DNA of 64,000 bases from Escherichia phage Baret. Of this stretch, positions 7,453 to 14,357 are shown in pieces (positions within the stretch are counted from its first letter, which is position 1; every line of letters begins with the position of its first letter). The stretch lies in the sequence record OR896834.1; one strand, 5' to 3'. The notes below the pieces were generated by a model. The model was not told the DNA's origin, made no database searches, and was given only the letters and a program-made list of their open reading frames with translations. Made by a program: the position numbers and the translations under genes.

Positions 7453-8859
7453 ATGTCTTTACAACTATTACGTAATACTCGAATCTTCGTGTCTACGGTT
7501 AAGACCGGTCACAATAAGACCAACACGCAAGAGATTCTAGTTCAGGATGATATTTCTTGGGGTCAGGACAGTAACTCAACAGATATTACTGTTAATGAAG
7601 CTGGTCCGCGTCCAACTCGTGGTTCTAAACGTTTTAATGACTCTTTAAACGCAGCTGAGTGGAGTTTCTCTACTTATATCCTGCCATATAAAGATAAAAC
7701 TACTAACAAACAAATTGTTCCTGACTATATGTTATGGCATGCACTTTCTAGTGGTAAAGCTATTAACTTAGAAGGTAATACAGGGGCACACAATAACGAA
7801 GCTAACTTTATGGTTAACTTCAAAGATAACTCTTATCACGAGTTAGCAATGTTACATATTTATATTCTGACTGATAAAGCATGGAGTTATATCGATTCCT
7901 GTCAGATTAATCAGGCAGAAGTTAACGTTGATATCGAAGATATTGGTCGTGTAACTTGGTCTGGTAATGGTAATCAGCTTATTCCTCTGGATGCTCAGCC
8001 ATTTGATCCAGATGTGGTAGGTATTGATGATGAAACTTATATGACTATTCAGAGTTCTTATATTAAGAACAAACTGACTATCCTGAAAATTAAGGATATG
8101 GATTCTGATAAGGCATATGATATCCCTATTACTGGTGGTACTTTCACCATTAATAATAACATCACGTACCTAACCCCAAATATTATGTCCCGTGTAAATA
8201 TTCCAATCGGTTCATTTACTGGTGCGTTTGAACTAACTGGTTCTCTGACAGCTTACCTTAATGATAAAGCTCTAGGATCTATAGAGCTATATAAAGATCT
8301 AATTAAAACTCTTAAGGTAGTTAACAAGTTTGAGATTGCACTTATCCTTGGTGGTGAATATGATGATGAACGTCCTGCAGCTGTGTTAGTTGCTAAACAG
8401 GCGCATGTTAACATTCCTACTATTGAGACTGATGATGTACTTGGTACTTCAGTAGAGTTTAAGGCTATCCCTACAGATCTGGATACTGGTGATGAAGGTT
8501 ATCTTGGTTTCTCTAGCAAGTATACTAAAACCACTGTGGCTAATCTGATTGCTACAGGAGATGGCGCTAAAACTCCACCAAAATTAGTTGAATCAATCAC
8601 AGTTAAATCTGCGGGTAATGTTACTTCAGTAGAGAATAGCAATACTTTGCAAATGTCTGTTGAGGTAACTCCGCCAGATGCTACTAATAGTGCTGTAACT
8701 TGGTCTATTTCTAGTGGTAATGCAGCTACAATTGATCCAGAATCTGGTCTATTAACTGCGGATACTACTAAGACTGGAGAAGTTACTGTGAAAGCTGTAG
8801 CTAAAGACGGTTCTGGTGTAGAAGGTACTAAGAGCATTACAGTTACTGCTGGTGGCTAA
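7453..8859 (+). CDS. tail tube protein with C-terminal Ig-like domain (pb6-like)
   Basis: 468 aa; AGGAG RBS; C-terminal ~90 aa (ITVKSAGNVTSVENSNTLQMSVEVTPPDATNSAVTWSISSG...) reads as a bacterial Ig-like fold; position before chaperones and tape measure. Confidence 0.7.
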   Translation: MSLQLLRNTRIFVSTVKTGHNKTNTQEILVQDDISWGQDSNSTDITVNEAGPRPTRGSKRFNDSLNAAEWSFSTYILPYKDKTTNKQIVPDYMLWHALSSGKAINLEGNTGAHNNEANFMVNFKDNSYHELAMLHIYILTDKAWSYIDSCQINQAEVNVDIEDIGRVTWSGNGNQLIPLDAQPFDPDVVGIDDETYMTIQSSYIKNKLTILKIKDMDSDKAYDIPITGGTFTINNNITYLTPNIMSRVNIPIGSFTGAFELTGSLTAYLNDKALGSIELYKDLIKTLKVVNKFEIALILGGEYDDERPAAVLVAKQAHVNIPTIETDDVLGTSVEFKAIPTDLDTGDEGYLGFSSKYTKTTVANLIATGDGAKTPPKLVESITVKSAGNVTSVENSNTLQMSVEVTPPDATNSAVTWSISSGNAATIDPESGLLTADTTKTGEVTVKAVAKDGSGVEGTKSITVTAGG

Positions 8860-8863
8860 TTAA

Positions 8864-9766
8864 ATGTACTACTCTCTAATGAGAGAGTCAAAAGTTATAG
8901 TTGAGTATGATGGTAGGGCATTTCATTTTGATGCCCTATCAAACTATGATATACAGACTTCCTACGAGGAATTCAAGACTCTTCGTAGGACTGTCCATCG
9001 TAGAACTAACTATGCAGACTCTATTATAAATGCTCAAACCCCCTCTTCTATCTCTCTAGCAGTAAATTTCAGTAATACTCTTACTGAGGCTAACTTCTTT
9101 GAATGGTTAGGTTTTGATAGAAAAGGTAATACTTTCTTACTCCCACTATATAGTAGTAATATTGAACCTATTATGTTCAATATCTATATAGTAAATAAAG
9201 ATAATAACTGTGTATATTTTGAAAACTGCTATGTATCTACAGTAGATTTTTCTTTAGATAAGAATATACCAATTCTTAATGTTGGTATTGAATCGGGGAA
9301 ATTTTCCGAAGTATCTACATATAGAGAAGCAGCTTCTATTATACAGGGTGAAGTAATGTCTTATAGCCCAGTAGTAGCTTCTACTAATGGCAGCATCTTA
9401 CCCGGTCTTATTTCTGCCTCTTTATCTTTCCAACAGCAGTGCTCCTGGAGAGAGGATAAGAGTGTTTTTGATATAAATAAAATTTATAATAATAAAAGAG
9501 CTTATGTAAATGAAATGAATGCTTCGGCAACCATTTCTCTATATTACTTAAAACGTTTTGCAGGAGATATGGTTTACAATATCGAACCGGAGACAGATGT
9601 ACCTTTAAATATAAGAAATAATAATATTTCTATAGATTTTCCTTCAGCACGTATTACAAAACGCCTAGATTTCTCAGATGTGTATAGAGTTGAGTGGGAT
9701 ATTATACCTACTGCTTCTTCAGACCCAGTGAGAATAGATTTCTTTGGAGAAATTAAAAATGATTAA
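8864..9766 (+). CDS. tail-associated structural protein (p140-like, putative)
   Basis: 300 aa between tail tube and chaperone ORFs. Confidence 0.4.
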   Translation: MYYSLMRESKVIVEYDGRAFHFDALSNYDIQTSYEEFKTLRRTVHRRTNYADSIINAQTPSSISLAVNFSNTLTEANFFEWLGFDRKGNTFLLPLYSSNIEPIMFNIYIVNKDNNCVYFENCYVSTVDFSLDKNIPILNVGIESGKFSEVSTYREAASIIQGEVMSYSPVVASTNGSILPGLISASLSFQQQCSWREDKSVFDINKIYNNKRAYVNEMNASATISLYYLKRFAGDMVYNIEPETDVPLNIRNNNISIDFPSARITKRLDFSDVYRVEWDIIPTASSDPVRIDFFGEIKND

Positions 9767-10163
9767 TTTAAAAGATATTACTCTTGATACTCGTACTATT
9801 ACTCTTTCCTACCCAGGTATGCCTAACTTTAAATTAGAACTTAACTATATGTCTCGTGCTACCTCTAAACGTGTTATTTCTTCTGCTAAACGCGATGAAT
9901 GGGTTAATGGTACTTTGATTCAGGTACAGGATGATGATAAGTTCATTGAAGCCTTCGTTGACGCAGCTATTAAAGGTTGGACCGGTTTGACTGTAGGTGA
10001 CGTTGAAAAACTGATGCTGATTGAAACAGATGCTGATCCTGCTACTGAAGTTCCTTTTAGCCGCGATAATGCTGTAATGCTCATGCAGAACTCTGCTGCG
10101 TTTGATTCTTGGATCAACCAGACAGTGTTCCACTTAGACACTTTTCGTAGCCCAAAAGCGTAA
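9759..10163 (+). CDS. tail assembly chaperone, short form (putative)
   Basis: ATG 9759 with GGAG RBS 9 nt upstream (ORF-track start 9744 is TTG); sits just upstream of tape measure gene; downstream ORF is open in +1 frame across its stop. Confidence 0.45.
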   Translation: MINLKDITLDTRTITLSYPGMPNFKLELNYMSRATSKRVISSAKRDEWVNGTLIQVQDDDKFIEAFVDAAIKGWTGLTVGDVEKLMLIETDADPATEVPFSRDNAVMLMQNSAAFDSWINQTVFHLDTFRSPKA

Positions 10164-10224
10164 AGAACTCCTAGATGCTGTTGCTGATTTTGCAGATAAG
10201 TGTATTAAAAGCTCAGCGTCTAAA

Positions 10225-10593
10225 ATGACTAAACAACAATATTTAATACTTTGTGAATCAATGGGTATAGAGCCTGATCCTAAGGCCATGCCTGTTGAAC
10301 TTGAAGACTTTCCACCTATTGTGGCTACTAGTATGAATATTTATAACAGTCTAATTGACTGCTTCATACCAGGTGACTTTCCTATCTTTATAGGTAAAGA
10401 TAAGGCTGCTCTAGGTGTTTTATTTGATATTTATGGGATTACTGATCCTATAGAGAAAGAATTTGTTCTACACATTATCAATATATTTGATGCTAAAGCT
10501 GTAGATGCTGCACGTAAACGTGCTGAGAAGCATAAACCGCAAAACGGAAGGATTCCTAACGTTAAGCCACATGCTAGATCTCGTGCACGGTAA
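10225..10593 (+). CDS. tail assembly chaperone C-terminal extension ORF (possibly expressed as frameshift fusion)
   Basis: no recognisable RBS before ATG 10225; its frame is open from 10138 and overlaps end of upstream ORF. Confidence 0.4.
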   Translation: MTKQQYLILCESMGIEPDPKAMPVELEDFPPIVATSMNIYNSLIDCFIPGDFPIFIGKDKAALGVLFDIYGITDPIEKEFVLHIINIFDAKAVDAARKRAEKHKPQNGRIPNVKPHARSRAR

Positions 10594-10628
10594 AAGTTTC
10601 CTCCAATGGGCGTTCCACGATGAGGCTT

Positions 10629-10660
10629 GGCTCTGGGTGATTTGCCCAGAGCCTTTTTTA
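10629..10660 (+). terminator. rho-independent terminator
   Basis: GGCTCTGGG-7nt-CCCAGAGCC hairpin followed by TTTTTT. Confidence 0.7.
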
Positions 10661-10676
10661 TTGGGAAAAATAAAAT

Positions 10677-13600
10677 ATGACTGATAAGCTAATACGAGAA
10701 TTACTAATAGACGTTAAACAGAAGGGGGCAACCCGTACTGCAAAGTCTATTGAAAACGTATCTGATGCATTAGAAAATGCTGCTGCTGCTTCCGAACTGA
10801 CAAATGAACAGTTAGGTAAAATGCCCAAAACTCTATATTCCATTGAGAGGGCAGCAGATAGAGCAGCGAAAAGTCTTACTAAAATGCAAGCTAGTAGGGG
10901 TATGGCTGGTATCACTAAATCCATTGATGGTATTGGTGATAAGCTAGATTACCTGGCTATCCAACTTATTGAAGTAACAGATAAGCTAGAAATTGGATTC
11001 GATGGAGTTTCTAGATCTGTTAAAGCAATGGGTAATGATGTTGCAGCTGCAACAGAGAAAGTTCAAGATAGATTGTATGACACTAATAGAGTTTTAGGCG
11101 GTACAACTAGAGGTTTTAATGATACTGCTGGTGCCGCTGGTAGAGCGTCTAGAGCCATTGGTAATACTTCTGGTTCAGCTCGTGGTGCAACTCGTGATTT
11201 TGCAGCAATGGCTAAGATAGGTGGTAGTTTACCTATTATGTACGCAGCTCTTGCTTCCAACATCTTCGTTTTGCAATCTGCATTCGAACAACTTAAATTA
11301 GGTGATCAGCTAAATCGTCTAGAAAAATTTGGTGTTATAGTAGGTACTCAGACAGGTACTCCTGTTCAGACCCTTGCTAGATCACTACAAGAAGCTGCTG
11401 GATATGCTATTTCTTTTGAGGAAGCAATGAGACAGGCATCTTCAGCATCTGCTTATGGATTTGATGCCGAACAACTTAATAAATTTGGTTTAGTAGCTCG
11501 TCGTGCTGCTGCTGTTCTTGGTGTTGATATGACTGATGCACTTAACCGTGTAATTAAGGGCGTATCTAAACAAGAAATCGAACTTCTGGATGAACTTGGT
11601 GTCACCATCCGTCTTAATGACGCATACGCTGATTATGTTAAACAGTTAAATGCTGCAAACACAGGTATAACATATAATGTTAATAGTCTTACCACTTTCC
11701 AGAAACAACAAGCATACGCTAATGCTGTTATAGCAGAGTCTACTAAACGTTTTGGTTACTTAGATGAAGTTTTACGTGCTACTCCGTGGGAGCAGTTTGC
11801 CGCTAATGCTGATGCCGCACTGAGAAAGATTCAGCAGGCTGCTGCTAAGTATTTAGGGCCGGTAATTGATGCTATCAACACAGTATTTTATACTTCTCAG
11901 GCTTCTATATCTGCTGAAGCAGCTAGAGCTCAAGAAAAAACCAATAGACAGATAGATCCTACCAACGTTGGTGCTGTTGCTTTAAGTTTGGCCGCTTCTG
12001 AAGAAGGCTATAATAAAGCTCTAGATATGTACAAGGAATCTCTTGATAAGCGTAATAAGCTAAAATCCGAATTCGATAAACGAATGGAGCAAGCGGATTT
12101 CTATACAAGATTAGCCATACGTCAAGTTGGTGAAGGTATTCCTGTTGGTCTTGCTGCTGCTGGTGCTTCCGAAGCTAATAAAAAGTTCGTAGAAGAAACT
12201 GCGGCTATGGGTCTACAAGTAACCAGACTAGGTAAGGAAGTAGAAGATTCTACTGAAAACCTTAATGCTTGGAAGTCAGCCTATCAAGCTGCGGGTGCTG
12301 CTGCTGCAAAAGCTAATCCAGAGTTTCAGAAACAGATTAATCTACAGAGAGATACTACTGATCCTGGTGCTGTATATGACTTTAACTCCACAGTATTAAA
12401 AGGACTAACTGAACAACAGAAAGCATATAATCAAACTAAGAAAACTGCTAGTGACTTAGCTAATGATATACAGAACGTTGCTCAGAATACAGATACTGCT
12501 GCTAAAACTAGTGCTACTTTAGCAGATGCTATAAAAAACATAGAATCTCTATCATTAGGCACTGGTAAGAGTGCCGATGAGTATGTTAAAAACCTTAACC
12601 TGGGCTATAACACACTGTCTGAAATGAAAACTGCATCTCAGGCTCTATCTGAGTATGTTAAACTAACTGGTAATGAAACTAAAAATCAGTTAGCAGTTCA
12701 ACAGAAAATAGCTGATGTGTACAACCAAACTAAGGATAAGGAAAAGGCTCAGGAAGCTGGTAGACGTTTAGAGTTGCAACAGTTAGAAGAGCAAGAAGCT
12801 GCTTTACGCCGTGTTCTTCAAACAAACCAGGGAAATAAAGCTGTTGAGAAAGAAATTGAAAAAATTCAGCTGGAGAAACTTAGACTTACCAATCAGGGTA
12901 TGGAAGCCCAGAAGAAGGTCAAGGATTACACAGATAAAATTCTTGGTGTAGATCGTGAGATAGCTCTCCTGAATGACCGTACTATGACTACTACTCAATA
13001 TAGATTAGCTCAGCTAAAACTAGAACTAACTGTAGAGAAAGAGAAGTACGAATGGTATACAAAACAAGCGGACAAACAGAAAGAGGCGGAACAGTCTAGA
13101 CGTGCGCAAGCACAAATAAGCCGGGAGTTATGGGAAGCGGAGAAGCAGGCAACTGCCTCACATGTATCAGCTCTCATGGATGCACTAGAAGTCAGCCAAA
13201 CACAAAGAAATGTTACTGGCCAAGCTCAGATTCTTACGGAAAGATTATCTGTTTTGCAAGAACAGCTAGAACTATCTAAGGGCAATACCGAAGAAGAGAT
13301 CAAGTATCGTAATGAGATCTATAAAACTGCTGCTGCTCTAGAGCAACTTAGAAAGCAAAGAGAAGGCCAAATGCAGCAACAGGTAGGATCTTCTGTGGGT
13401 GCTGTGTACACTCCTACAACTGGACTATCTGGGGAAGACAAAGATTTTGCAGATATGCAAAATAGAATGGCTTCTTATGATCAGGCAATCTCTAAGCTAT
13501 CTGAATTAAATTCTGAAGCAACCGCTGTGGCTCAAAGTATGGGTAACTTAACTAACGCTATGATTCAGTTCTCTCAGGGATCCTTAGATACTACCTCCTT

Positions 13601-14357
13601 GATTGCTTCTGGCATGCAAACTGTATCTTCTATGATTCAGTATAGTACTAGTCAACAGGTTAGTGCTATTGATGCAGCTATCGCAGCGGAGCAGAAACGT
13701 GATGGTAAATCAGAAGCATCTAAAGCTAAATTGAAGAAGCTAGAAGCTGAAAAGCTGAAGATTCAACAAGACGCAGCTAAGAAGCAGATTATCATCCAAA
13801 CTGCGGTAGCAGTAATGCAAGCGGCAACAGCTGTACCGTACCCGTTCTCTATTCCTTTGATGGTGGCGGCAGGTTTAGCAGGTGCCTTAGCTCTTGCTCA
13901 AGCATCTTCTGCTTCTGGTATGTCAAGTATTGCTGATTCTGGAGCGGATACAACTAGTTACTTAACCTTAGGAGAGCGTCAGAAGAATATAGATGTGTCT
14001 ATGTCTGCTAATGCTGGTGAATTATCTTATATCCGTGGTGATAAAGGCATAGGCGGTGCTAACTCTTTCGTTCCTCGTGCTGAGGGTGGTAATATGTACC
14101 CTGGGGTTAGCTATCAAATGGGTGAGCATGGTACAGAAGTAGTTACCCCTATGGTTCCTATGAAAGCTACGCCTAATGATGAGCTAAAAACCTCATCTAA
14201 CTCAACTTCAGGAAGACCTATCATCCTGAATATTAGTGCTATGGATGCTGCAAGTTTTAGAGAGTTTGCTTCTAGTAATAGTAGTGCTCTAAGAGACGCA
14301 GTGGAATTAGCTCTGAATGAGAACGGTGCTAGTCTGAAAACATTAGGAAATTCTTAA
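10677..14357 (+). CDS. tail tape measure protein
   Basis: 1226 aa, long alpha-helical/coiled-coil protein with Ala/Gln-rich repeats, upstream of distal tail and hub genes. Confidence 0.85.
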   Translation: MTDKLIRELLIDVKQKGATRTAKSIENVSDALENAAAASELTNEQLGKMPKTLYSIERAADRAAKSLTKMQASRGMAGITKSIDGIGDKLDYLAIQLIEVTDKLEIGFDGVSRSVKAMGNDVAAATEKVQDRLYDTNRVLGGTTRGFNDTAGAAGRASRAIGNTSGSARGATRDFAAMAKIGGSLPIMYAALASNIFVLQSAFEQLKLGDQLNRLEKFGVIVGTQTGTPVQTLARSLQEAAGYAISFEEAMRQASSASAYGFDAEQLNKFGLVARRAAAVLGVDMTDALNRVIKGVSKQEIELLDELGVTIRLNDAYADYVKQLNAANTGITYNVNSLTTFQKQQAYANAVIAESTKRFGYLDEVLRATPWEQFAANADAALRKIQQAAAKYLGPVIDAINTVFYTSQASISAEAARAQEKTNRQIDPTNVGAVALSLAASEEGYNKALDMYKESLDKRNKLKSEFDKRMEQADFYTRLAIRQVGEGIPVGLAAAGASEANKKFVEETAAMGLQVTRLGKEVEDSTENLNAWKSAYQAAGAAAAKANPEFQKQINLQRDTTDPGAVYDFNSTVLKGLTEQQKAYNQTKKTASDLANDIQNVAQNTDTAAKTSATLADAIKNIESLSLGTGKSADEYVKNLNLGYNTLSEMKTASQALSEYVKLTGNETKNQLAVQQKIADVYNQTKDKEKAQEAGRRLELQQLEEQEAALRRVLQTNQGNKAVEKEIEKIQLEKLRLTNQGMEAQKKVKDYTDKILGVDREIALLNDRTMTTTQYRLAQLKLELTVEKEKYEWYTKQADKQKEAEQSRRAQAQISRELWEAEKQATASHVSALMDALEVSQTQRNVTGQAQILTERLSVLQEQLELSKGNTEEEIKYRNEIYKTAAALEQLRKQREGQMQQQVGSSVGAVYTPTTGLSGEDKDFADMQNRMASYDQAISKLSELNSEATAVAQSMGNLTNAMIQFSQGSLDTTSLIASGMQTVSSMIQYSTSQQVSAIDAAIAAEQKRDGKSEASKAKLKKLEAEKLKIQQDAAKKQIIIQTAVAVMQAATAVPYPFSIPLMVAAGLAGALALAQASSASGMSSIADSGADTTSYLTLGERQKNIDVSMSANAGELSYIRGDKGIGGANSFVPRAEGGNMYPGVSYQMGEHGTEVVTPMVPMKATPNDELKTSSNSTSGRPIILNISAMDAASFREFASSNSSALRDAVELALNENGASLKTLGNS

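Follow-up and report, generated by a model that had tools for sequence, protein, structure and literature searches.

Comparative sequence evidence for a probable +1 ribosomal frameshift joining the tail assembly chaperone genes of T5-like phages

A chaperone frameshift upstream of the tape measure gene is among the most conserved features of long-tailed phages, yet the reference genome of T5, a classic structural model, lists two genes at this place. Are the two chaperone genes of T5-like phages translated separately, or does a fraction of ribosomes pass from the first into the second? This question was addressed in a stretch of 64,000 nucleotides (nt) from Escherichia phage Baret (record OR896834.1; hereafter the window, numbered from its first letter), which belongs to the T5-like phages (Tequintavirus). 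Here two open reading frames (ORFs), ORF1 and ORF2, lie next to each other in the tail module. Comparison with other genomes makes it quite likely that they are fused by a +1 ribosomal frameshift into a product resembling the lambda G/GT protein. We also think it likely that ORF1 and ORF2 correspond to the G and T parts of a lambda-type pair and that the shift is a +1 slip on UUU_C at 10143-10146, giving a fusion of 277 amino acids (aa). The G/GT chaperone frameshift is already known as a kind; what is new is the +1 direction on UUU_C proposed for the T5-type pair. The elements of the locus are as follows.

9759-10163, + strand: ORF1, the short 'G-like' tail assembly (tape measure) chaperone, 134 aa, homolog of T5.143
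10138-10163, + strand: overlap of the +1 frame with the end of ORF1, 26 nt, the interval singled out in a preliminary description of this DNA
10143-10146, + strand: proposed +1 shift site UUU_C, tRNA-Phe moving from UUU (10143-10145) to UUC (10144-10146)
10146-10148, + strand: zero-frame A-site codon CGT following the putatively slippery UUU, motif UUU_CGN
10147-10224, + strand: +1-frame linker without a start codon, VAQKRKELLDAVADFADKCIKSSASK
10155-10158, + strand: AAA_G, the shift site suggested in the preliminary description; conserved within T5-likes only and not supported as the shift site of the family
10165-10200, + strand: predicted tryptic peptide of the linker, ELLDAVADFADK, encoded upstream of ATG 10225
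10225-10593, + strand: ORF2 as annotated, the 'T-like' part, 122 aa, homolog of T5.142 (PHROG 3914, E=1e-56; PHROG 313 positions 170-258)

ORF1 extends from ATG 9759 to TAA 10161-10163 and its 3′ end reads TTT CGT AGC CCA AAA GCG TAA, the last five codons of which had been given correctly in the preliminary description. In the +1 frame a TAG at 10135-10137 is followed by an open stretch from 10138 to the stop at 10591-10593, within which the first ATG, GTG or TTG is ATG 10225; none occurs in 10138-10224. No Shine-Dalgarno (SD) core is found at -18 to -4 of ATG 10225, while 41 of the 52 long ORFs in the window have one. Inspection of the bases thereby bore out two earlier statements, that the +1 frame is open from 10138 (an overlap of 26 nt) and that ATG 10225 has no recognisable ribosome binding site. 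As in a G/GT pair, ORF2 overlaps the end of ORF1 in another frame and lacks a translation start of its own. The predicted fusion would contain 277 aa (M1-F129 plus 148 aa).

Judged on one genome alone, the open overlap is only weakly beyond chance, which is a point against a frameshift: among the window's genes, 12.8% of +1-frame stretches 29 codons long contain no stop (chance probability about 0.13). Moreover, in 20 of 53 long ORFs a different frame runs open through the stop for 100 codons or more, a consequence of tightly packed and overlapping genes. What is unusual at ORF1/ORF2 is the distance of 62 nt to the first start codon. Since the single-genome signal is weak, the case rests on comparison with other genomes.

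We therefore examined coding selection in 31 T5-like sequences (85-100% nt identity), which aligned without gaps. The 61-nt spacer at 10164-10224 contains 21 variable sites, distributed 5/1/15 over positions 1/2/3 of the +1-frame codons. This pattern resembles that of the ORF bodies (26/4/88 for ORF1 and 19/12/74 for ORF2), and by this measure the spacer evolves as +1-frame coding sequence. A coding stretch without an in-frame start codon needs ribosomes arriving from ORF1, as only these could reach the linker. The variable sites upstream of TTT (10133, 10134, 10136 and 10139) are all synonymous in frame 0, and 10139 is non-synonymous in the +1 frame. Further downstream, 10140-10163 is invariant except for 10152 (C/T), which exchanges Pro and Ser in frame 0 and is a synonymous Ala change in the +1 frame. 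Frame-0-synonymous changes upstream together with the +1-synonymous change at 10152 indicate that the selected frame switches between 10139 and 10152. As expected of a G/GT-type arrangement, the region upstream of the nominal ORF2 start is thus under coding selection, and the two-frame layout is kept in distant relatives.

To survey these relatives, the simulated fusion was used as a tblastn query. This yielded 909 phage records, 893 of which cover at least 80% of the query, from phages of Salmonella, Escherichia, Klebsiella, Erwinia, Vibrio, Proteus, Aeromonas and other hosts. Every full-length row among the matches listed (59 of 59) consists of two pieces in two frames. Divergent lineages with ORF2 in the +1 frame number 16, and fall into 14 clusters at no more than 60% aa identity. 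They comprise T5-like, Sugarland, Erwinia KEY, Vibrio Ceto, VspSw_1, JSF10, D260 and D378 as well as the metagenomic lineages L071, L073, L075, L077, L082, L084, L089 and L090. In each of the 16 the +1 frame, followed upstream, stays open past the ORF1 stop. The preliminary description had proposed that the overlap be compared in related genomes; this was done and the overlap proved to be conserved, and its proposal of a G/GT-like fusion of about 280 aa made by a +1 frameshift is strongly supported by the comparative evidence. A HMMER search with the fusion against 1.84 billion cluster representatives gave 421 matches; no genuine single-ORF fusion was present among the best 150 of these, each of which covers either query positions 1-135 or 128-265. 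One 94-aa sequence spanning the junction (P0003) was considered as a natural fusion and rejected as a sequencing artefact because of additional indel-like changes, namely a Glu that is missing and a C-terminus that is scrambled.

These data bear on the simplest alternative, namely that no frameshift occurs. ORF2 would then be a gene in its own right, with weak initiation of a leaderless-like or coupled kind at ATG 10225, and the +1 frame upstream of it would be open by accident or as a relic. Most records, including RefSeq T5, annotate two coding sequences; ATG 10225 is invariant in the 31 T5-likes; an open stretch of 29 codons is not rare by chance in one genome, as noted above; and a genome paper reports no predicted frameshift signal in T5 or Sugarland (PMC6256483). 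Against this stand the +1-frame coding periodicity of 10164-10224, the missing SD sequence at ATG 10225, and a distance of 62 nt from the ORF1 stop that is too far for stop-start coupling. Outside the T5-likes the Met is not conserved, being replaced by Ile in Sugarland, Val in KEY, Phe in Ceto and JSF10, and Leu in VspSw_1 and D260. In these phages the first ATG falls within the conserved motif TK.QY..C, so that initiation there would truncate it, and the annotated Sugarland ORF2 start does cut into the motif. The frame is also open across the ORF1 stop in every +1 lineage, and homologs described below have canonical -1 heptamers at the same place. We therefore regard independent initiation of ORF2 as unlikely.

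If ribosomes shift from ORF1 into the +1 frame, where do they do so? The residue Phe129 of ORF1 is invariant in 108 of 108 ORF1 cluster representatives and is one of three such residues. At this Phe, TTT followed by C, the arrangement of UUU_Y sites, was found in 16 of 16 +1 lineages, and no other nucleotide there is shared by all of them. The following codon is CGT in eight lineages (the T5-likes with the window among them), CGA in four, CGC in three and CCA in one, so that all but the last have CGN. The codon before TTT is not conserved and is ACT in the window; the UCC that occupies the E site in influenza PA-X is thus not a feature of this site. In D378 and L089 the open +1 frame begins just 14 nt ahead of the ORF1 stop, and in L077 17 nt ahead, which confines the shift to the codons from two before to one after the Phe. 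In addition, the +1-frame peptide right after Phe is conserved between T5, Sugarland and KEY (VAQKRK, VTQNRN and VANRQQ), whereas their frame-0 tails are not (RSPKA, RDSKQEPTA and RS). From these observations we infer a slip at UUU_C, 12 nt upstream of the site suggested in the preliminary description and inside the interval it had marked.

The preliminary description had instead placed the shift at AAA_G, with tRNA-Lys slipping from AAA (10155-10157) to AAG and a nearby stop assisting; the junction would then read TFRSPK/RKELL. AAA_G is indeed invariant in 31 of 31 T5-like sequences, tRNA-Lys is notoriously slippery in E. coli (PMC5009743), the fusion would be identical in length to that from UUU_C, and JSF10 has AAA_AGG a few codons past its TTT_CGT. 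However, AAA_G is absent from most of the other +1 lineages (KEY, Ceto, VspSw_1, D260, D378, L071, L077 and L089). Their ORF1 ends read, for example, TTT CGT AGC TAA in KEY, TTT CGA AAC TGA in Ceto, TTT CGT TAA in D378 and TTT CGC TAA in L071, and Sugarland has AAA_C, which is unable to re-pair. Nor is the stop adjacent to AAA in the window, as the frequent codon GCG lies between them, and the conserved +1 peptide begins upstream, directly after Phe. The invariance of AAA_G within T5-likes is already explained by dual coding. This site is therefore improbable as the place of the shift in T5-likes, less probable in our estimation than the independent start of ORF2.

The same frame could be reached by RNA polymerase slippage on the T-run or by a -2 ribosomal shift. 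A T-run of three to five nt is present at the site in every lineage, and -2 leads to the same frame as +1. However, these runs are only 3-5 nt long, and known transcriptional slippage needs runs of about 7-9 (as reviewed in PMC5009743). A -2 shift would place tRNA-Phe on CUU, ACU, GGU and other codons that are mismatched and vary between lineages. We consider either process very improbable.

Other candidate signals were examined. No productive X_XXY_YYZ heptamer leading into a long ORF was found in the window, ORF2 being in the +1 frame, and in this respect the pair departs from the usual G/GT signal. C_CCA_AAA at 10151-10157 is formally a -1 slippery heptamer, but the -1 frame stops after six codons and the first C is polymorphic (C/T, 16 versus 15 of the 31 T5-likes), which makes a function unlikely. 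Genome-wide avoidance of TTT_Y was considered as a sign of shiftiness. In the 53 long ORFs of the window TTT precedes a pyrimidine in 22% of cases and TTC in 50%, but almost every NNT codon precedes a pyrimidine far less often than its NNC synonym (AAT 25% versus AAC 51%); since the NNT/NNC control shows an equal bias, the depletion is not specific evidence and the argument was rejected. It reflects a strong general codon-context bias in these ORFs.

A further view of the junction came from sister lineages that appear to join the same domains by a shift in the opposite direction. At 25 IMG/VR loci and several other contigs the homologous ORF2 is in the -1 frame, and ORF1 is 33-39% identical to that of the window. 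Heptamers adjoin the same Phe, either CTG GGA AAC TTY (G_GGA_AAC) or GCA AAT TTT (A_AAT_TTT). In L078 the -1 site is a U_UUU_C run, and L080 and L076 have A_AAA_AAC at the stop, matching a 'VKN*' C-terminus present in 17 of the 108 clusters. With loci L039-L063, L067, L076, L078 and L080 taken into account, the chaperone family would use at least four types of shift site, the site having moved by about 11 codons along the linker with the fusion length constant. Fusions simulated at TTT_C for +1 lineages and at the heptamers for -1 lineages are 255-278 aa long and align without gaps through the junction and linker. A direct comparison is provided by L056 (-1), AAC TTT TCG AAG AG (AACTTTTCGAAGAG), and L073 (+1), ATC TTT CGA AGA G (ATCTTTCGAAGAG): one T fewer in the run turns the -1 geometry into +1, and the transframe residues F-E-E are unchanged. 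In a neighbour-joining tree of ORF1 the Phe-Arg sequences mostly cluster without being cleanly monophyletic, and the tree is too weak to root the change of direction. Of the 421 family matches, 108 ORF1-type cluster representatives were analysed, and the Phe-Arg signature is present in about half of these (52, against 56 others). We lean slightly towards the broader proposal that the whole T5 family (Demerecviridae and many uncultured relatives) makes its long chaperone by a stimulator-free UUU_CGN +1 slip, the same cassette as in PA-X, and that an indel of one base, within the run of T at the invariant Phe, switched the direction between -1 and +1.

The mechanism suggested by these comparisons is as follows. 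Most ribosomes would translate ORF1 and stop at the TAA ending at 10163, producing the short chaperone of 134 aa. In a minority, with CGU in the A site, the P-site peptidyl-tRNA-Phe (anticodon GAA) would re-pair from UUU to the better-matched UUC, and the ribosome would move into the +1 frame. The shifted ribosomes would read GUA GCC CAA AAG and onwards through the spacer and ORF2 to 10593, and the 277-aa fusion would have HLDTF joined to VAQKRKELLDAV at its junction. If the two parts act as they do in lambda, the tape measure protein pb2 would be bound by the N-terminal region common to both products, and the tail tube protein would be recruited by the C-terminal region. UUU_C, through its own slipperiness and with no stimulator, would keep the long product at a low, fixed proportion of the short one. 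In bacteria UUU_Ynn sites are prone to +1 shifts, and lambda needs a G:GT ratio of roughly 30:1 (PMC5009743); a low unstimulated efficiency would fit such a ratio, if the comparison with lambda holds.

Several observations weigh against the proposed slip on UUU_C. The +1 lineages may share one origin and hence are not fully independent. AAA_G is as invariant as UUU_C within T5-likes, and an additional slip there is possible. The window's ORFs contain eight further in-frame TTT_CGN; with nine observed and about 12 expected the motif is about as frequent as expected, and the site is therefore not unique in the window. The +1 and -1 lineages differ suggestively in their use of TTT and TTC, but at the level of clusters (60% identity) the difference, 14:0 versus 4:2, lacks significance. 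No SD-like (GGAGG-like) sequence lies upstream of the site and no significant RNA structure downstream of it (z = -0.9 and -0.6); as CGU is a common E. coli codon, nothing obvious pauses the ribosome. The genome paper cited above, with its lack of a predicted signal in T5 or Sugarland, is a further point on this side, and full-text searches gave no paper that reports experiments on the T5-type chaperone family or describes for it a +1 shift or a UUU_C site.

One potential structure near the site may be mentioned separately. A 9-bp hairpin (10172-10180 with 10214-10222) starts 26 nt past the site and ends 2 nt before ATG 10225. It is kept in T5-likes, with U-G or U-A at one position, and is not significant versus shuffles. 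It is probably irrelevant to shifting, and could further occlude initiation at ATG 10225.

At the protein level, ORF1 and ORF2 match the 'tail assembly chaperone' PHROGs 313 and 3914. PHROG 313 is a single profile of 258 positions across both ORFs, which may itself include annotated joined products. No Pfam match was obtained for the protein of ORF1/ORF2 of the window, and ORF1 does not reach E≤0.1. Distant ORF1 homologs (L073, L080, L090 and others) carry the precomputed Pfam label PF27119 (Phage_YdaY), a name not suggestive of a tail chaperone. The +1-frame part was modelled with a predicted local distance difference test score (pLDDT) of 87, and its linker forms a confidently predicted helix (residues 2-21, pLDDT about 90); no meaningful structural match was found for this modelled part.

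How does the T5-type pair compare with known frameshift systems? One of the closest counterparts is the gpG/gpGT chaperone frameshift of lambda and other long-tailed phages (Levin 1993; Xu, Hendrix and Duda 2004, 2013 and 2014, as summarised in PMC5009743). In both, a pair of ORFs directly precedes the tape measure gene, and the second ORF is without its own start; the long product, predicted in the T5-likes, contains the whole short N-terminal domain, the layout is conserved despite low similarity, and the product is presumably made at a low level and absent from virions. Unlike in lambda, the proposed T5-type shift is +1 rather than -1 and would be a single-tRNA P-site slip on UUU_C rather than on a heptamer, there is no Pfam similarity to lambda G/T, and the p140 gene stands between the tube gene and the chaperones.

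Another is PA-X of influenza A, produced by a +1 shift at UCC_UUU_CGU (Firth 2012, PMC3498833); UUU_CGN sites are also found in amalgaviruses and chronic bee paralysis virus (as cited in PMC5009743). With PA-X the T5-likes share the UUU_CGN dicodon, the presumed P-site slip of tRNA-Phe onto UUC, and a site at the 5′ end of a conserved overlapping +1 ORF, and a low efficiency is expected in both because there is no evident stimulator. The T5-type +1 lineages differ in using bacterial ribosomes, in that CGU is common rather than rare in enterobacteria, in having one lineage with UUU_CCA, and in an E-site codon that is not UCC and not conserved (ACU, ACC, AAC, GGG, UUG and others). In bacteria, UUU_Ynn sites are known from E. 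coli argI (Fu and Parker 1994) and the Yersinia YopN-TyeA fusion (both as cited in PMC5009743). These share the host type, the tetranucleotide and the independence from an adjacent stop, and in YopN-TyeA, as proposed for the T5-type pair, two adjacent ORFs are fused into a functional hybrid. However, they are host genes or translational errors, whereas the T5-type shift, if real, is a conserved, family-wide programmed event in a phage morphogenesis module. The release factor 2 gene prfB (CUU_UGA with an upstream SD-like stimulator) resembles the proposed T5-type shift in that, close to where a short ORF ends, the P-site tRNA slips by +1 to a codon overlapping the first. Unlike prfB, the window has its stop five codons after TTT rather than in the A site, no SD-like stimulator, and no autoregulatory logic; among the +1 lineages, CGN runs straight into the stop only in D378, L071 and L089.

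The gene neighbourhood is that of a tail module. Over 9700-10700 the identity to Salmonella phage vB_Si_CECAV_FGS017 (PP429239) is 100%, and a nucleotide search with this region gave 444 phage records at 80-100% identity. The order is pb6-like tube, p140, ORF1, ORF2, a terminator-like hairpin and the tape measure gene, so that the pair occupies, between tail tube/p140 and the tape measure gene, the place expected of a G/GT pair.

7453-8859: tail tube protein, pb6-like, with an Ig domain
8864-9766, + strand: baseplate tube protein p140 (PF23779, E=2e-140), the upstream neighbour of ORF1
10629-10659, + strand: intrinsic-terminator-like hairpin with T-run (11 bp, seven G-C pairs), between the chaperone pair and the tape measure gene
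10677-14357, + strand: tape measure protein, pb2-like, 1226 aa, presumed client of the chaperones

The start of ORF1 overlaps the stop of p140 at 9759-9766 (ATGATTAA), which suggests translational coupling. An ORF finder lists TTG 9744 as an alternative ORF1 start; it is unlikely because homologs begin MINLKD and GGAG sits at 9749-9752. A terminator is also annotated at the equivalent place in T5, Sugarland and KEY. Its position right before an essential late structural gene is odd, and it may tune the ratio of chaperones to tape measure protein. T5 proper (NC_005859, positions 1-658 of L091) has an HNH-type endonuclease gene, T5.141, between the terminator and the tape measure gene; T5.141 is absent from the window (10594-10676), where the tape measure gene comes directly after the terminator. 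A 33-aa 'hypothetical protein' annotated at about 10583-10684 in the matching GenBank record reaches from the end of ORF2 across the terminator hairpin into the start of the tape measure gene; this call is probably spurious.

In existing annotation, RefSeq T5 (T5.143 and T5.142) and most relatives show two separate chaperone coding sequences. Two of eight T5-like records inspected carry a join: Salmonella phages Shivani (KP143763) and Sw2 (MH631454) have a 'Tape Measure Chaperone Frameshift Product' whose span fits a +1 shift. Both are close relatives of the window at 90-94% identity at the same locus, both come from the Center for Phage Technology (CPT), and the joins (AJA73579.1 and AXY85088.1) are annotation only, with no motif, conservation analysis or experiment attached. 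Six possible junction proteins for the Shivani join were looked up in a protein collection, and none was present. The Sugarland paper (PMC6256483) comes from the same annotation centre, as its CPT locus tags indicate, and treats the genes as unframeshifted; the view of Zivanovic 2014, on T5 morphogenesis, is taken here from the sentence citing it in that paper.

If the proposed frameshift is true, T5-like genomes are largely mis-annotated at the chaperone locus, and the published view that T5 lacks a conserved chaperone frameshift would be overturned. Bacteria would gain a natural, essential and family-wide case of the UUU_CGN +1 cassette in a form genetically tractable in E. coli; until now this cassette has been characterised chiefly in RNA viruses of eukaryotes. 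Frameshift predictors that demand a rare A-site codon or a heptamer will miss sites of the UUU_C class. For the family itself, the chaperone pair would offer a clean case in which the direction and the site of a frameshift evolved while the fusion protein stayed the same.

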